Assembly: GCA_030649345.1 (NCBI GenBank)
Contig: JAUSKK010000035.1
Coordinates: forward strand, 1 to 11,514
Origin: Candidatus Iainarchaeum sp.
GTDB lineage: Archaea; Iainarchaeota; Iainarchaeia; Iainarchaeales; 0-14-0-20-34-12
Direction of reading: 5' to 3'
Length of the DNA stretch: 11,514 nt
Below the pieces are notes generated by a model. That model made no database searches. It worked only from the letters and a program-made list of their open reading frames with translations, and was not told the DNA's origin. Position numbers and translations under genes: made by a program. This document shows positions 2,854 through 11,514 of the stretch, one piece after another. Numbering within the stretch: the stretch's first letter is position 1; the number at the start of each line of letters is the position of its first letter.

Positions 2854-3600
2854 CTAAGGTTCTGATTTGCAGACAAATAACCATTCCCTGTTTTTGAGCG
2901 TAGCTTCTTTTAATTTTCGATCCCCGTATATTTTTATTTTTTTGAATCCAGCTTTCTTTAAAATTTGTTTAACTTCTTCCAATTCATACACTCGTTGATC
3001 TACTCTGTATTCTTTTTCTTTAAACAAATTTCCGTGCATTCGCTCCAATACTTTTAATTTAATGCTCCAATCTTTTCCATTTAATTTATCCAGCCAAATA
3101 AATTCAGTATCTGAATTTACAACATCGCCGTACCCTAAACTGTCCAGCATGTCTTGCACATGTCTTTGGGTGGCAATGTTAAAAATTAATAATCCATTTT
3201 CATTCAAATGTTTTCTGGCTTCCCTGCAAACTTTTTCCATTATTTTGGGTTCCAAAAAATGATTGAATACATCAATGGAAACAATTAAATCAAACTTTGT
3301 TTTCGGTTTAAAGTCTTCAATTTTTTTTCCCACCCACGCAATGTGCGGAACCATCCAGGATTTTTCTCGAGCAACTTTTAACATTTCTTTGCTTTGATCA
3401 ATCCCAGTAACTGCACAGCCTAATTCAGCAAATGCAATAGCCATTTTCCCTGTTCCAGTTCCTAAATCTAAAACATTCAACAATTCGTTTTTTTCAATTC
3501 TTGCAATTTTTTCAATCAAAAAAAGCCATTCATCTTGGCTTTGTTCCGTTATTTGATCATAGACTTTGGCAAACTCGTACGAATTGGTTTTCCCCTTCAT
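2854..3600 (-). CDS. class I SAM-dependent methyltransferase (Methyltransf_11/25-like), substrate unknown
   Basis: Motif I is VLDLGTGTGKMA, followed by the acidic motif II residue (GIDQS) and a post-I region typical of small-molecule or RNA methyltransferases. I chose the start at the second ATG (complement of 3598-3600), because it forms an ATGA overlap with the upstream gene's TGA stop (3597-3599). The track start at 3630 remains possible. Confidence 0.75.
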   Translation of the reverse strand: MKGKTNSYEFAKVYDQITEQSQDEWLFLIEKIARIEKNELLNVLDLGTGTGKMAIAFAELGCAVTGIDQSKEMLKVAREKSWMVPHIAWVGKKIEDFKPKTKFDLIVSIDVFNHFLEPKIMEKVCREARKHLNENGLLIFNIATQRHVQDMLDSLGYGDVVNSDTEFIWLDKLNGKDWSIKLKVLERMHGNLFKEKEYRVDQRVYELEEVKQILKKAGFKKIKIYGDRKLKEATLKNREWLFVCKSEP

Positions 3601-4688
3601 GGTTTCATTGGCTCCAGTACAGCTAAACATTCCATATGATTGGTGTTTGGAAAAAAATCAAACCCTTTAATAGATTCTAAAGCATAATTGGATTCTTTAA
3701 ACCATTCGATGTCTCGGCATAAAGTCACTGGATTGCAGGAAACATAGAAAACTTTCTTGGGTTTTCGTTCAGCAATTCGTTGAATGGTTTTCTTTTCAGC
3801 TCCAGCTCTCGGCGGATCCAAGCAAACAAAATCAGTTTCAAAATCTAAATCTTTCAATACTTTTCGCGCACTTCCAGCTATAAATTCAGCATTTCCAATG
3901 CCATTCAGTTTTGCATTTTCTTGGGCTAGCTGAACTGAATTTTCTTCAAATTCTATTCCTAAGACTTTGAAGCTTTTTTGAGCCAAAGGCAAAGTTAAAG
4001 CGCCTACACCGCAATACAAATCCAGTATATTTTGTCCTTCCGGCACTCGGTTGACTAAATCAGTAAACAATTTTTCTGCTTGAACAATATTGGCTTGAAA
4101 AAAAGTATTGTGACCCATTTTGAATCTTAAGTTCATAAAATGTTCTTCTAAAAAATTTTCTCCAAATGTTTTTATTAATTTTCCTTGTGAAGTATCGCTT
4201 AAAGTATCATTTAAAATCCAAACCAAACCAGTTAACTTTAATTCTTTCAAACAATCATTTGCAATTTGTTCTATCTCTTTTTCAATTTCTAAAGTATTTG
4301 AAACCAATGAAATCAGAAATTGATTTGTTCGTTTGGTTTCCCGCAAAACAGCATACTTTACTTTTCCGGTTAAATTGAATTCATTTAATTTTTTTTCTAA
4401 AAACCGCGCAACTTGATTTGCTTTTTCAGACATTAGCAAACAATGCTGTAAAGAAAAAGTTTCTTGAAAATTTTCTTTTCGTCTCAAACCAAGTTTTCTA
4501 TTCAAGAAAGCCAATTCTAATTTATTTCTGTAAAAAAACTGGTTTTCACTTTTCTCAAACTGAATGTTTTGTCCAAAAAATTGCGCTAGATTGTTTTGTT
4601 TTTCTTGGCATTGATTTTCGTACGAGTATTCCATTTTAGGGCAGCCATTGCATTCTGTAAAGTGTACGCACATTTGTTTAGTGCTCAT
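3597..4688 (-). CDS. RumA/TrmA-type RNA (uracil-C5)-methyltransferase lacking the N-terminal TRAM domain
   Basis: An N-terminal Cx5Cx2C (CVHFTECNGC) plus a distal Cys (LQHCLL) resembles the RumA [4Fe-4S] ligands. The SAM motif is LDLYCGVGALTL, followed by LDPPRAGA and the catalytic-Cys motif FYVSCNPVTLCRD. Confidence 0.85.
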   Translation of the reverse strand: MSTKQMCVHFTECNGCPKMEYSYENQCQEKQNNLAQFFGQNIQFEKSENQFFYRNKLELAFLNRKLGLRRKENFQETFSLQHCLLMSEKANQVARFLEKKLNEFNLTGKVKYAVLRETKRTNQFLISLVSNTLEIEKEIEQIANDCLKELKLTGLVWILNDTLSDTSQGKLIKTFGENFLEEHFMNLRFKMGHNTFFQANIVQAEKLFTDLVNRVPEGQNILDLYCGVGALTLPLAQKSFKVLGIEFEENSVQLAQENAKLNGIGNAEFIAGSARKVLKDLDFETDFVCLDPPRAGAEKKTIQRIAERKPKKVFYVSCNPVTLCRDIEWFKESNYALESIKGFDFFPNTNHMECLAVLEPMKP

Positions 4689-4699
4689 ATACTATTTTT

Positions 4700-4989: not shown

Positions 4990-6678
4990 TTATTGTACAG
5001 TGATAGTTGGCCCGGTAAATGTATCGTTTGCAGTGTTAGGGTCGTTATCAAAGTCTATGGTAACACTGGTTTGAAATGTTCCCGGGCTGGGCCCATAGGA
5101 GTGCTGGAAGTTACACAAGGTCTGCACTTGATTTAGTGTGCTCGCGGTGCTTCCTTGGCAGTTTTTGTCACCGCTGCCATCTCCAAAGTTGATGTGAATC
5201 GTGTATCCGTTGAATGATTCACCTGAAGACGATCCAGGGCCCAAGTTGATGGTTGAAATGTTATAACTAAACACTTGATGCACGGCCAAGGTTTGGGTTG
5301 ACGTATTAAACGCTGCATTGTTTACGGTTACGTTCACGTTGTCAACCTTGTAATCGTATTCTTGCGGTGCAGCGGGTGGCACATTCAAGTTCACACTGGT
5401 TTCGCAGGATGCATAATCAGTATCAATCATAATGTTCTTGCTGGTTCCATAATTTACTGCGCTATAAGAACAAGTCGCAGTGGCAGTGTCTCCAACAGCA
5501 GTCACAGTTTGCTGGTTGTTTTGAGAACCTTCACAGCGTACTCGGACTTCAGTATTTGGGCTGTCGACATCTGTTACAGTTACTGTTATTTCGCCTGCGC
5601 CGTTAAGCATAGTAGGATTTACAGTCACTGTACATTCTTCGTATTGCATAGTATCTTCATAAGGGCAGTTGACGATCTCGCATCCGTTTTCGTCTGTCTC
5701 ACGAATGGGTGTTTTCCCATCTGCTCTACATTGTTGTTCGCTTTCTTGCAGGCTGACTTCGCTGATGCAACTGTTTTGAGTGATCACAGTAATGTTCTTG
5801 GAGCAGGAAAATGTTTCGGTTTCGTTGATAAGATTAACAGTAATATTTCGGCTCCCAATAAAGGATTCATCGGAGTAGCGACAACTGAATGCTTTTTCTC
5901 TGCCAGTGACTGTAATGTTTTCGTTTCCAGTTCCGTAATCACAGTCCAGTGTTCCTGTAACTGGATATTCGAGGTTTTCAAGGATCACGTAAGAGTATAC
6001 TGGAGATCCATTTACTTGGACTTCAAGAGGATATGAGTCAAGCGTACAAGCTGGTTCCAAATTTGTAGTCTCATTGTCTTCGCTATCTTCTTCAGTATCT
6101 GAAGTTCCATCTTCGTTGTCTTCAGGTGTTGTTGTCTCAACATCAGTAGGTTGGGTTTCCGTAGTGTCAGTATTTTCTACTTCTCCACAGTCACTGTCCA
6201 ATTCAGTTGTGCAGCCTTCTGGGCAGTATTCGTCTCCGCCTGCACAAGCAGTGATGTATGTGCTTCCACATGTTTTTGGTTCTCCGGAGCACACGTCTCT
6301 TGTAGCAGGATTATTATCATCACAGTCAGTGTCTTCTTCACAACTGTCAGTTCGGTTGACTTTTCTGATAAAACAGACAAGTTGTTTGTCGGCAACACTT
6401 ACCCATGCTTGCATGATAGATTCCGGACTTTCAATGTTTGCGTAGAAATAATCTTGGGCTGGAATACTCTTTCCGCATTTCTCGCTAATGTCTGCAAGCT
6501 GAGTTGTAATTTCGGCTTCAGTCAATAGAACAACAGTTAAGTCCGAGTCCGGATTTTCCGCCAAAAAGTTTTGTACTTCCGGTAAATTTGAAACAATATT
6601 GGTTGCAGAGTCTCCGCCTTGCGTACATCCAAACAAAACAAGTGCTGCTAGAATGAATGCTGCAGTTCGTAATTGCAT
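4990..6678 (-). CDS. secreted or lipid-anchored Cys-rich surface protein with an acidic Thr/Asp/Glu linker, two paralogous Cys-containing beta-type modules and a PKD-like C-terminal domain
   Basis: I take the start at ATG (complement of 6676-6678), because the track start at 6687 is a TTG. The N-terminus MQLRTAAFILAALVLFGCTQGG looks like a signal peptide with a lipobox-like LFGC. A Cys/Asp-rich block (CEEDTDCDDNNPATRDVCSGEPKTCG...) follows. The linker is TDTTETQPTDVETTTPEDNEDGTSDTEEDSEDNETT. There are many N-x-S/T sequons. The C-terminus INFGDGSG...FQHSYGPSPGTFQTSVTID resembles the PKD signature. Confidence 0.8.
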   Translation of the reverse strand: MQLRTAAFILAALVLFGCTQGGDSATNIVSNLPEVQNFLAENPDSDLTVVLLTEAEITTQLADISEKCGKSIPAQDYFYANIESPESIMQAWVSVADKQLVCFIRKVNRTDSCEEDTDCDDNNPATRDVCSGEPKTCGSTYITACAGGDEYCPEGCTTELDSDCGEVENTDTTETQPTDVETTTPEDNEDGTSDTEEDSEDNETTNLEPACTLDSYPLEVQVNGSPVYSYVILENLEYPVTGTLDCDYGTGNENITVTGREKAFSCRYSDESFIGSRNITVNLINETETFSCSKNITVITQNSCISEVSLQESEQQCRADGKTPIRETDENGCEIVNCPYEDTMQYEECTVTVNPTMLNGAGEITVTVTDVDSPNTEVRVRCEGSQNNQQTVTAVGDTATATCSYSAVNYGTSKNIMIDTDYASCETSVNLNVPPAAPQEYDYKVDNVNVTVNNAAFNTSTQTLAVHQVFSYNISTINLGPGSSSGESFNGYTIHINFGDGSGDKNCQGSTASTLNQVQTLCNFQHSYGPSPGTFQTSVTIDFDNDPNTANDTFTGPTITVQ

Positions 6679-6726
6679 CCTAACCAAAGGACTTTCAGAT
6701 TTATATTCTTTTCGTGCAAAAATATT

Positions 6727-6951
6727 TGCCCCAGCCGGGAATTGAACCCGAATCTCCGCCGAACTTCAACGCTTTTTGTTAACATTTTTTGCAAACGCAA
6801 AAAAGGTTTCGCCGAAGGCATTTTCCGCCAACGCTTTTTTGCAACCAAGTAAAACCAGCTGGTTTTACGGGTCCAGCAAAGCTATTGCTTTGCTTGACAG
6901 CAAAAAAGGGTTGTGAGAGGGCAGTATACTTAGCCGTTGTACTACCGGGGC
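6727..6951 (-). tRNA. tRNA-Glu (anticodon CUC) interrupted by a 152-nt intron at position 37/38
   Basis: The 5' exon (6951-6914) reads GCCCCGG-TA-GTAC-AACGGCTAA-GTAT-A-CTGCC-CTCTCA. The 3' exon (6761-6727) reads C-GGCGG-AGAT-TCGGG-TTCAATT-CCCGG-CTGGGGC-A. Joined, they give a 73-nt cloverleaf with one G.U in the acceptor, one U.G in the anticodon stem, one G.U in the D stem and one U.G in the T stem. The splice junction is ambiguous by 1 nt, and isotype identity rests on the CUC reading. Confidence 0.75.
6762..6913 (-). other. long, ORF-less, highly structured tRNA intron
   Basis: All coordinates are + strand. There is a 20-nt perfect palindrome GTAAAACCAGCTGGTTTTAC (6849-6868), an 8-bp hairpin AGCAAAGC-TATT-GCTTTGCT (6875-6894) and an 8-bp hairpin TTTTTTGC-AAAC-GCAAAAAA (6785-6804). 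CTTTTTTGC (6834-6842) is complementary to GCAAAAAAG at both 6797-6805 and 6900-6908. The intron termini pair with each other. Confidence 0.65.
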
Positions 6952-8742: not shown

Positions 8743-8836
8743 TGCCGGTGGACAGATTTGAACTGTCGACGCCCAGATCACCCTTCAATTTTAGAAGCTA
8801 TGAGTCTGGTGCTCTACCAGGCTGAGCTACACCGGC
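8743..8836 (-). tRNA. tRNA-Met or tRNA-Ile2 (anticodon CAU; non-initiator acceptor stem) with a 20-nt intron at 37/38
   Basis: The minus strand reads GCCGGTG-TA-GCTC-AGCCTGGTA-GAGC-A-CCAGA-CTCATA-[GCTTCTAAAATTGAAGGGTG]-A-TCTGG-GCGTC-GACAG-TTCAAAT-CTGTC-CACCGGC-A. All stems are perfect Watson-Crick. The intron occupies 8779-8798. Confidence 0.9.
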
Positions 8837-10629: not shown

Positions 10630-10672
10630 AGTTTTGTCCAACAAATTGAAGCCACTTTTCTTGGACAAAACT
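10630..10672. repeat. 12-bp perfect inverted repeat (AGTTTTGTCCAA-19 nt-TTGGACAAAACT) in a divergent intergenic region
   Basis: The arms at 10630-10641 and 10661-10672 are exact reverse complements, followed on the + strand by TTTT. The repeat lies between the start of the 129-aa gene (10576) and the LAGLIDADG start (10780). Confidence 0.45.
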
Positions 10673-10703
10673 TTTTAAGAATTTAAAAATAAAAAATTCA
10701 GTT

Positions 10704-10720
10704 CACCGGAAACACCGGAA
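10704..10720. repeat. tandem CACCGGAA-A-CACCGGAA direct repeat (GC island in AT-rich spacer)
   Basis: There are two exact 8-mers with a 9-bp period at 10704-10711 and 10713-10720. Each contains the palindrome CCGG. They lie about 60 nt upstream of the LAGLIDADG ATG. Confidence 0.35.
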
Positions 10721-10779
10721 GTCTACCTCCCAACTCTTTTTAAAGGAAAAAAATGTAAATCTTATTTGATGGTGGTTGA

Positions 10780-11514
10780 ATGAGATTCAATAAAAAAGCA
10801 ATAATTCCTTCTGGAATCACAAAAGAACTTGCCGAAGAAACTGGCATTCATATCGGTGATGGTTATTTGGGGTTTGGCAAATATAAAACCAATATAGCTT
10901 ACGCATATTCAGTAACAAATGGTATTGATGAAGAAGATTATTCCTTAAACTATATTGCGCCTTTGATTTACAAGCTTTATGGACTTCTGCCTTCAGTCTA
11001 TCGTGGGAAAGACAATGCAATATATTTGCATTATAAGTCAAAGATTTTGTTTAATTTTAAAAAAGATCTTGGTTTGCCAGTTGGCCCAAAAGACAGTGTA
11101 CTCATTCCAATTGCAATATTGAACTCAGAATATGTTCTTGATTGCATTCGAGGGATTTTTGACACAGATGGTTCTTTAAATTTTCAGAAAAAACACAAAA
11201 GTTATCACTATTATCCACGGTTGGATATTGCAGCTAAAAACAGAGAGCTCATTCTCCAAATTGATCGTGTACTTAAATGTCTTGGTTTTACAACTTCATT
11301 GCAATTAGATACGAAAAAGCTTACCTGCGCTGGAACCATTTGCACTTCTAGTCGGATATTTTTATATGGGAAAAGAAACTTAGAACTTTGGCTTAAACGA
11401 ATTGGATTCTCAAATCCTAAAAACCTAAACAAACTTAAAATCTGGCGAGAAAAAGGCTATTGTGAAAAGCCCTGGGAGGGAATTGAACCCTCGACCTCAA
11501 CATTACCAATGTTG
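10780..11514 (+). CDS. double-motif LAGLIDADG homing endonuclease, free-standing; no stop before the window end
   Basis: It is missing from the ORF track because it runs off the window. I checked the frame line by line: 245 codons are open from the ATG at 10780, which is preceded by an in-frame TGA and a GGTGG motif. Motif 1 is LAEETGIHIGDG (aa 17-28). Motif 2 is LDCIRGIFDTDG (aa 120-131). Both retain the catalytic Asp. The inter-motif and post-motif lengths are typical of monomeric enzymes. Confidence 0.85.
   Translation, partial: MRFNKKAIIPSGITKELAEETGIHIGDGYLGFGKYKTNIAYAYSVTNGIDEEDYSLNYIAPLIYKLYGLLPSVYRGKDNAIYLHYKSKILFNFKKDLGLPVGPKDSVLIPIAILNSEYVLDCIRGIFDTDGSLNFQKKHKSYHYYPRLDIAAKNRELILQIDRVLKCLGFTTSLQLDTKKLTCAGTICTSSRIFLYGKRNLELWLKRIGFSNPKNLNKLKIWREKGYCEKPWEGIEPSTSTLPML
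11468..11514 (-). tRNA. tRNA-Thr (anticodon GGU), 3' portion only (truncated by the window end)
   Basis: The minus strand reads ...CAACA-TTGGTAA-TGTTG-AGGTC-GAGGG-TTCAATT-CCCTC-CCAGGGC-T. The anticodon arm, variable loop, T arm and 3' acceptor strand are complete. There is no intron at 37/38. Confidence 0.8.

Follow-up and report, generated by a model that had tools for sequence, protein, structure and literature searches.

Introduction

LAGLIDADG homing endonucleases of the I-DmoI, I-Tsp061I, and I-PorI type are encoded in bulge-helix-bulge (BHB) introns of ribosomal RNA (rRNA) genes and home into the intron-less rRNA gene. To our knowledge, all archaeal homing endonucleases described so far reside either in rRNA introns or in inteins. 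Here, we analyze a LAGLIDADG endonuclease gene located at the end of a DNA stretch of 11,514 nucleotides (nt), hereafter called the window, from Candidatus Iainarchaeum sp. (the entire contig JAUSKK010000035.1 of GenBank assembly GCA_030649345.1). The open reading frame (ORF) begins at position 10780 of the + strand and runs, in antisense, into the 3' end of a tRNA-Thr(GGU) gene. As in the I-DmoI-type enzymes, the encoded protein is a single chain with two domains, an aspartate ends each LAGLIDADG helix, and the host is an archaeon. In contrast, the gene is found outside any intron, with its own promoter-like box, against the 3' end of a tRNA gene carried by the opposite strand, and the sequence identity with the I-DmoI-type enzymes is only about 20%. 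The enzyme is thus of a known kind, and it is the genomic lifestyle that differs from all described archaeal cases.

In phage T4, SegB is a free-standing GIY-YIG homing endonuclease encoded within a tRNA gene cluster, and its spread is tied to the tRNA region (PMC2988022, PMC13096335). Like segB, the gene of the window is free-standing, lies next to a tRNA gene, and would home without an intron. However, SegB belongs to the GIY-YIG superfamily, comes from a phage, and shows neither an overlap between ORF and tRNA nor a family-wide, base-precise abutment. By analogy, it would nevertheless be the nearest functional counterpart. Group I introns of bacterial and organellar tRNA genes carry endonuclease genes as well, the conserved tRNA sequence being the homing site (PMC3984707). 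In archaea, every group I intron reported to date to carry a LAGLIDADG ORF is located in an rRNA gene (PMC6125680). In the present case, an endonuclease gene is again associated with a tRNA gene, but no group I ribozyme was detected in the window or in the relatives tested.

Two other systems are relevant. In “collaborative homing,” a free-standing endonuclease gene lies beside an interrupted target, as observed for the cyanophage F-CphI gene next to the psbA intron. The gene of the window also lies beside, and not inside, the gene thought to be cut, and the adjacent tRNA-Thr(GGU) has small introns in two of its closest relatives (L002 and L003). Unlike in the F-CphI case, the tRNA of the window is intron-less and the association covers many intron-less tRNAs. 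Finally, WhiA has lost the catalytic acidic residues of LAGLIDADG enzymes and carries a C-terminal helix-turn-helix (HTH) domain. The window protein shares with WhiA a double LAGLIDADG scaffold encoded by a chromosomal, non-mobile-looking gene. In contrast to WhiA, both aspartates are invariant, there is no HTH domain, and the WhiA Pfam model reaches 13.2 bits for a cut-off of 23.2.

In the open literature that we searched, no archaeal LAGLIDADG family is described with members located at tRNA gene termini or in BHB introns of tRNA genes. In reviews, the disruption of tRNA genes is put down to mobile elements that are not further specified (PMC4390854). As described below, the gene of the window is a member of a large, mainly DPANN-archaeal family, the gene 3' ends of which are pressed against or inside tRNA genes. 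This family-wide, base-precise association is a more valuable result than the overlap seen in the single copy.

A Predicted Two-Domain LAGLIDADG Endonuclease

The ORF starts with the ATG at 10780 and continues for 245 codons without a stop, as judged from its translation, up to position 11514. The ATG is immediately preceded by an in-frame TGA (10777-10779) and, 4 nt 5' of the ATG and ahead of this TGA, a Shine-Dalgarno-like GGTGG motif can be read from the sequence (10771-10775, + strand). An alignment of upstream regions showed no conservation of this motif in relatives. The start codon, the GGTGG motif, the upstream stop, and the frame left open at the window edge had been pointed out in a preliminary description made from the sequence alone, and all are confirmed by the sequence and its translation. 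The NCBI annotation of the protein reads “LAGLIDADG family homing endonuclease, partial.”

Translation, Pfam, AlphaFold2 (AF2), Foldseek, and the invariant aspartates together define an endonuclease core of residues 1-229 (10780-11466, + strand). Motif 1 (...ELAEETGIHIGDGYLG; GIHIGDG) carries the catalytic D27 (codon 10858-10860), motif 2 (...CIRGIFDTDGSL; GIFDTDG) carries the catalytic D130 (codon 11167-11169), and a conserved C-terminal tryptophan, Trp222, corresponds to codon 11443-11445. D27 and D130 are both invariant in a 38-sequence alignment of homologues. Across 83 loci, the motif-2 aspartate is found in 83/83 and the motif-1 aspartate in 81/83, the remaining two showing gaps there. 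More generally, the core retains all the residues that are invariant in the family. A search with the Pfam LAGLIDADG_3 model (PF14528), one of the checks proposed in the preliminary description, gives 26.7 bits over residues 118-209, above the cut-off of 22.5 bits (E = 7e-6), and the domain is also present in the homologues. In a sequence search of the PDB, the closest solved sequences are I-HjeMI and I-AniI.

Structure prediction was another of the proposed checks. The AF2 model of the window protein, built on 38 homologues, has a predicted local distance difference test score (pLDDT) of 92.5 and a predicted template-modelling score of 0.88. The secondary structure pattern H-E-E-H-E-E-H occurs twice, giving two alpha-beta-beta-alpha-beta-beta-alpha domains. 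The last helix spans residues 213-225 and the fold is complete by about residue 225. The confidence collapses after about residue 230 (mean pLDDT of 51 for residues 231-240 and of 42 for residues 241-245), and the part encoded antisense to the tRNA, residues 231-254, is predicted to be disordered. Because the core is complete before the tRNA starts, as had been anticipated, the tRNA-encoded tail is an unstructured appendix. Foldseek matches the model with a probability of 1.00 to I-DmoI, I-Tsp061I, I-AniI, and PI-PfuI, with target-normalised template-modelling scores of 0.7-0.79 for I-DmoI and 0.75 for I-Tsp061I; further matches include the endonuclease domain of the TliVMA intein and bI3, which is, like I-AniI, a LAGLIDADG maturase. 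The profile match, the two motifs, and the predicted fold all place the protein in the LAGLIDADG superfamily and, judging from sequence and model, the ORF encodes an intact, monomeric, two-domain, double-motif endonuclease that is predicted to cleave DNA.

Overlap With the tRNA-Thr(GGU) Gene

The window end truncates the tRNA gene, the 3' 47 nt of which lie in the window (11468-11514, - strand; Rfam, 33.6 bits). With TTGGTAA as anticodon loop, the anticodon is GGU and the tRNA is therefore specific for threonine. The overlap with the tRNA begins at codon 230 (AAG, 11467-11469), as already described, and codons 230-245 form the part of a C-terminal read-through tail that is visible in the window (11467-11514, + strand), encoded by the tRNA antisense sequence. 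The end of the gene was found on a Logan contig (L001), which was identified by a look-up of the neighboring protein of 129 amino acids (aa) and is in reverse orientation. L001 is 100% identical to the window across 5,662 nt and reaches 328 nt further. The tRNA-Thr(GGU) is complete on this contig (72 nt, 75 bits, intron-less; ARAGORN call at L001 304-375) and would span 11468-11539 in an extended window. The complete ORF has 254 codons, the tail going on to codon 254 and a TAA. It traverses the tRNA over its full 72 nt in antisense and ends with ...GAG CCA CCA GGG CAA TAA, the TAA lying 5 nt outside the tRNA, on its 5' side. On this side, the next host gene terminates at a distance of 40 nt from the tRNA. 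Extending the contig, as had been suggested, thus yields the real stop, and it is the whole tRNA, rather than just its 3' end, that is overlapped. L001 and the metagenome-assembled genome (MAG) that contains the window possibly derive from a single sample, and L001 is therefore no independent proof against a sequencing error; the window protein aligns to its homologues without a break up to the tRNA boundary.

In a neighbor-joining tree, the window sequence (and L001) forms a clade with P0002/L082 (63% identity), P0003/L083 (59%), and L002, L003, and L004 (46-51%). The hosts belong to different DPANN groups (Diapherotrites, Woesearchaeota, and Micrarchaeota) and the genes upstream of the endonuclease differ in every locus. 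In all six loci, a tRNA-Thr(GGU) is convergent with the ORF, its 3' end lying a few codons past the conserved C-terminal helix, so that the location of the gene right at the tRNA 3' boundary, which had been suggested from the window, is a feature of the whole clade. The distance from the tryptophan codon to the tRNA 3' end is 25 nt in the window, 38 nt in L002, and about 22 nt in L082 (read from the sequence); L003 and L004 have no tryptophan at this column.

The homologues stop at or near the tRNA edge. In L004, the TGA is found 1 nt before a tRNA that contains a T-loop intron and was missed by ARAGORN. In L082, the TAG overlaps only the last two bases of the tRNA, and in L083 it is 9 nt inside. 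The TGA of L002 is formed by the antisense T-loop, and the stop of L003 is inside the tRNA intron, 56 nt in. The window ORF stops past the whole tRNA. In the same frame relative to the tRNA, L082 reads “aaa tAG CCC CAG GGG GGA ATT” and the window “gaa aAG CCC TGG GAG GGA ATT.” The read-through of the window is thus due to a single T/A difference (TAG in L082, AAG in the window) just 3' of the tRNA discriminator base; the antisense T-loop of the window tRNA (GGA ATT GAA) contains no in-frame stop either. From this comparison, the long overlap is best read as a recent loss of the stop codon rather than as a designed C-terminus, and the approximately 24 residues derived from the antisense tRNA are probably functionless. 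Hence, the preliminary proposal that the gene borrows its C-terminus from the tRNA is not retained. The accompanying proposal of a stop supplied by the tRNA fails for the window copy, which stops two codons past the tRNA 5' end, and holds for the relatives that stop inside the tRNA.

A stop codon apparently lost, a disordered tail added, a base composition matched to the host, and no evidence of mobility in this genome could also be the marks of an inactive relic, that is, an old, decaying insertion with an open frame and a long overlap devoid of biological meaning. We regard this as very unlikely. Indeed, the 229-residue core has neither frameshift nor internal stop, aligns end to end with its homologues, keeps every invariant residue of the family, both catalytic aspartates included, and is predicted by AF2 to adopt a confident fold.

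Family-Wide Association With tRNA Genes

When 1.84 billion cluster representatives were searched with a profile, 987 clusters were retrieved with E <= 1e-30 and 4,035 with E <= 1e-10. At least 386 relatives were obtained by scanning one genome per GTDB species, and the best 80 loci were fetched. ARAGORN finds a tRNA at the end of 46/80 endonuclease ORFs vs. 23/511 (4.5%) for the other long ORFs of the same loci. In 48/81 loci, the tRNA edge is located -2 to +125 nt from the conserved tryptophan codon, mostly at 25-45 nt. As ARAGORN misses intron-rich tRNAs, further abutting tRNAs were added from Rfam (L053 and L077), from inspection by eye (L004 and L005), and from a heuristic based on the T-arm plus acceptor (L008, L041, L057, L061, L078, L080, and L081). 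The total of abutting or overlapping tRNAs thereby reaches 53 firm and about 63 likely cases among 83 relatives. Among distant relatives carried by viral contigs, the count is 0/34.

Two arrangements prevail. In the convergent one, to which the window belongs, the tRNAs are Thr, Ser, Met, Ile, Asn, and Leu tRNAs. In the other one, typical of the His(GUG) and Arg(GCG) clades, ORF and tRNA are on the same strand and the ORF runs into the tRNA 5' end. The acceptor stem of a tRNA is self-complementary, and the ORF therefore meets near-identical sequence in both arrangements, which might be the reason why the ORF invariably faces the tRNA with its 3' end. The frame continues into the tRNA in the majority of the abutting cases, and conserved bases of the tRNA often supply the stop, as a TGA in the antisense T-loop (L002 and L005) or a TAG in the D-arm (L035 and L048). 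Clades of the neighbor-joining tree follow the identity of the tRNA, Thr(GGU), His(GUG), or Arg(GCG), and single genomes hold several paralogues at different tRNAs. Some members of the family look truncated or interrupted (L043, L059, and L061).

The tRNAs adjacent to these genes frequently contain non-canonical or multiple introns (L004 3362-3470, with a T-loop intron; L005 4742-4871; L008 693-820). Since ARAGORN and the Rfam tRNA model miss such genes, tRNA counts in DPANN MAGs are likely underestimates. Giant introns were also called by ARAGORN. Two of these calls, for L054 and L078, are spurious, inspection showing the same-strand arrangement in both. For a third one, L020, no canonical anticodon loop could be derived.

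Whether the nuclease targets a tRNA gene had been raised as a question in the preliminary description. The family-wide pattern strengthens this idea, and the constant position of the gene against tRNA genes suggests that the empty allele is cut at or near the insertion point. We therefore favor, as fairly probable, the reading in which the window gene is a selfish, tRNA-gene-targeting homing endonuclease, its cleavage specificity and mobility being what we infer.

Relatives at tRNA-Lys, tRNA-Arg, and tRNA-His Genes

A locus from a Woesearchaeota MAG (L037) contains a member of the family inside a tRNA gene. Once spliced, the exons at 3952-3982 and at 4635-4678 form a perfect cloverleaf of tRNA-Lys(UUU), and an intron of 652 nt separates them at the non-canonical position 30/31. 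A LAGLIDADG ORF of 211 aa fills this intron, from nt 16 to a TGA overlapping its last 4 nt. As read from the sequence, the exon-intron boundaries can be drawn as helix-bulge-helix-bulge-helix, with an outer helix GAGC/GCUU, a bulge GAA, a central helix ACUU/AGGU, a bulge GAG, and an inner helix GAGAUAAGC/GCUUAUCUU. No group I ribozyme was found in L037 with Rfam, and, unlike group I tRNA introns, the boundary is of BHB type. We know of no described archaeal tRNA intron encoding a homing endonuclease. The family thus includes a resident of a tRNA intron, and this connects the free-standing copies with tRNA genes as their targets.

In L054, a 31-nt, 90% identical copy of the 5' part of the downstream tRNA (4639-4669) is found at 3820-3850, upstream of the endonuclease gene. 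This duplicate may be the footprint of a break and its repair inside the tRNA gene. In three Nanoarchaeota loci of the Arg(GCG) clade (L044 3423-4706; L031 ~3418-4695; L076 3379-4712), a unit made of a TATA box, the endonuclease gene, and a complete tRNA-Arg(GCG) has a fragment of another tRNA on either side. Of these two, the 5' one contains an acceptor strand and a D-arm, and the 3' one contains a T-arm, an acceptor strand, and an A. Their acceptor strands pair with each other, C6-G67 in L044 being matched by the compensatory U6-A67 in L076, and no anticodon arm was found in the bracketing fragments. The bracket could be what is left of a tRNA that was disrupted, or else a split tRNA or a processing cassette resembling a tRNA.

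These bracketed units also suggest that endonuclease and adjacent tRNA might move together as one cassette, the tRNA being a cargo or a replacement copy and the cut being made elsewhere, for example in a copy of this tRNA that is already resident or in a different tRNA gene. Such a mode would be comparable to that of phage T4 SegB, which drives the inheritance of a tRNA gene block (PMC2988022; see PMC13096335), and the overlap between ORF and tRNA means that the two are not easily separated. We nevertheless hold a cassette to be improbable for the window, where no bracketing fragments or repeats surround the unit of endonuclease plus tRNA-Thr, in the window or in L001, and where a host gene ends just 40 nt from the tRNA 5' end.

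In the His(GUG) clade, the order endonuclease, tRNA-His(GUG), histidyl-tRNA synthetase (HisRS) is kept in about 20 loci (L019, L021, L035, and L048 among them; e.g., L021 3452-5912). The LAGLIDADG proteins of this clade carry an N-terminal extension of 125-175 aa without Pfam match. Their endonuclease core has a mean identity of 53%, vs. 42% for the adjacent, essential HisRS. The identities of the two proteins are weakly correlated (r = 0.44), with some pairs at 66% against 32%; as a sign of a phylogeny incongruent with that of the host, this is suggestive only.

The strong conservation of the endonuclease in this clade raises the question of domestication. The protein would then be kept by the host for a job tied to the adjacent tRNA gene, possibly the control of tRNA transcription, gene conversion keeping tRNA copies uniform, or an RNA chaperone or maturase activity on the pre-tRNA. 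Several observations are in line with this: members from different DPANN phyla retain a position at the same tRNA, the His clade shows a conserved gene order and an endonuclease core that is better conserved than the neighboring HisRS, the key residues are invariant, the base composition is fully matched to the host, and LAGLIDADG maturases (bI3 and I-AniI) are among the structural matches. We give domestication only a modest chance, as WhiA-type domesticated proteins have lost the catalytic acidic residues, both of which are invariant here, and the WhiA Pfam model remains below threshold. The distribution is patchy. The presence of paralogues at different tRNAs in a given genome, together with truncated or interrupted-looking copies, corresponds to traits of selfish elements, and one member, in the tRNA-Lys intron of L037, occupies the classic position of a homing endonuclease.

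Surroundings of the Gene

The endonuclease gene is free-standing, with its own start codon and a promoter-like box, outside any intron or host ORF. A TATA-box-like sequence, TTTTTAAA (10737-10744, + strand), is located about 36 nt 5' of the ATG, and an A/T box is found at a matching distance in 5/6 loci of the Thr(GGU) clade; TTTTTAAA is likely the archaeal promoter of the gene. A scan of the locus for sigma-70 promoters and intrinsic terminators was uninformative for an archaeon. Further upstream, an alignment reveals a motif AGTTCACCGGAA followed by a second one, CACCGGAA (10700-10720, + strand). The 12-mer AGTTCACCGGAA is identical in the window and in L004 (~2592), and L003 contains CACCGGCA (~2639). 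Motifs of this type are found about 90-137 nt 5' of the conserved ELAEE motif in hosts of different phyla and are about 6-fold enriched 5' of the ORFs compared with the remainder of the loci. They may represent a conserved 5' part of the element, extending past the ORF, or a regulatory site. A strong hairpin (10630-10672; 16-nt arms, 94% complementary, 11-nt loop), obtained from an inverted-repeat search, lies in the divergent intergenic region between the gene of the 129-aa protein and that of the endonuclease and may not be part of the element.

The other genomic contexts in which LAGLIDADG genes occur were considered in turn. A fusion with an intein or a host gene is rejected on the basis of the upstream in-frame stop and of the absence of any match to Hint or intein Pfam models. 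NCBIfam matches to models of intein-containing IF-2 and RFC concern the endonuclease part only and are far below threshold. With no Hint domain and no open frame upstream, the protein is therefore not part of an intein. An rRNA or group I intron context is rejected as well, as no match to an rRNA or group I intron family above the Rfam thresholds was obtained in the window, in L001, or in ten related loci; next to the adjacent tRNA, no further RNA family surrounds the gene in the window or L001. Location inside an intron of the adjacent tRNA is also rejected: this tRNA is complete (75 bits) and on the opposite strand. A blastn-short self-search and a half-tRNA heuristic revealed no tRNA halves, displaced tRNA fragments, or repeats resembling attachment (att) sites around the gene in the window or L001. 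It is from the lack of intein, intron, rRNA, bracketing tRNA halves, and integrase, and from the gene's own TATA-like box, that its free-standing status follows. The preliminary view of an intact, free-standing gene is therefore upheld, no host exon being found either; the preliminary interpretation is on the whole correct, and none of the findings that were to speak against it (an intein, a location in an rRNA or tRNA intron, a loss of catalytic residues) was encountered.

The 3' ends of tRNA genes are classic attachment sites of archaeal integrative elements (discussed in PMC4390854), and the gene might have been carried as cargo by a genomic island or a provirus of the integrase type integrated into the tRNA gene. 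This is hardly conceivable here. Neither the window nor L001 contains an integrase, viral or plasmid genes, or an att-type direct repeat of the tRNA 3' end, and the distance of a few codons between endonuclease gene and tRNA edge is fixed in all members of the clade rather than variable.

The neighboring genes of the window are ordinary chromosomal ones and encode an ArsR-type regulator, a ribose-5-phosphate isomerase, an M48 peptidase, a tRNA m5U methyltransferase, and other methyltransferases. An ORF of 565 aa (4990-6687, - strand) has no Pfam match, and the local GC content is 0.43-0.44 there vs. 0.33-0.35 for the window. The complete set of three tRNA-Thr isoacceptors is found within 10 kb, all on the - strand: UGU (1842-1914), CGU (8743-8836), and GGU (11468-11514). 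The tRNA-Thr(CGU) has a 20-nt intron and is miscalled as Tyr(AUA) by standard ARAGORN. With the intron mode of ARAGORN, a tRNA-Glu(CUC) is called at 6727-6951 (- strand), with an ORF-less intron of 152 nt at position 39/40 in which TTTTTTGC/GCAAAAAA hairpins abound. A mobilization of this intron in trans by the endonuclease, also put forward in the preliminary description, found no support; the intron has no similarity to the endonuclease gene.

A Putative Homing Mechanism at tRNA Gene Ends

If the window gene is indeed a selfish, tRNA-gene-targeting homing endonuclease, its cycle may be envisaged as follows. The recognition site of the enzyme would be long and asymmetric, with its anchor in the conserved terminal part of a tRNA gene, and alleles without the endonuclease gene would be cut. 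Recombinational repair from the occupied allele would then copy the gene next to the tRNA. The insertion, being just outside the mature tRNA, would keep the tRNA functional and, as with an intron, the cost to the host would be low. It would also split the recognition site, thereby protecting the occupied allele from cutting. Since there is no 3' untranslated spacer in the element, translation continues in the tRNA until it meets a stop codon. Conserved nucleotides of the tRNA often supply this codon in relatives; in the window copy, a T-to-A difference would have removed the stop.

Several points weigh against this reading. Searches with the neighboring 129-aa gene and with a tRNA pattern found no endonuclease-free allele of the same species. 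The search for an empty allele in metagenomes used a degenerate tRNA-Thr(GGU) pattern, which was too generic: most of the 120 matches are bacterial tRNA-Thr genes with an encoded CCA, and only three (L094, L123, and L136) are archaeal-type tRNA-Thr(GGU) loci without endonuclease, on unrelated contigs. The 129-aa neighbor is an orphan, without homologue other than itself in 5.8 billion sequences (a 129-aa gene in L082 is unrelated to it). With such a neighbor and no close sequenced relative of the organism, mobility can only be inferred. The GC content of the gene equals the window average, which does not point to a recent acquisition. Cutting inside the tRNA would be marked by displaced tRNA fragments; these are rare, being limited to L054 and the Arg clade. 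In the His clade, the higher conservation of the endonuclease than of HisRS fits a host-beneficial vertical retention as well as a frequent horizontal transfer. Finally, the convergent overlap places the endonuclease transcript in antisense to an essential tRNA, possibly at a cost.

The diversity of positions in the family (about 1,000 clusters at 50% identity, E <= 1e-30) leads to a broader proposal, which we make only tentatively. A whole lineage of these enzymes may have specialized on tRNA genes and would be found in non-canonically placed BHB introns, in the 5' leader of a tRNA of the same strand, or in the 3' trailer of a tRNA of the opposite strand, the ORF end being fused to the tRNA each time.

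Concluding Remarks

The “partial” endonuclease ORFs that enter tRNA genes in DPANN MAGs are real and systematic and are not assembly noise. If tRNA genes are indeed cut, the family would provide a set of natural meganucleases with tRNA-gene specificities. Besides the intron and the intein, these genes would have a second harmless niche, just outside a mature RNA, with the RNA gene supplying the stop codon. The enzymes would also be a testable agent for the introns at odd positions, the fragmentation, and the splitting of archaeal tRNA genes. In Nanoarchaeota and other DPANN archaea, they could be the agents, long looked for, from which non-canonical tRNA introns, pieces of tRNA genes, and split tRNAs originate, and the loci of the Arg(GCG) clade would then be intermediates.

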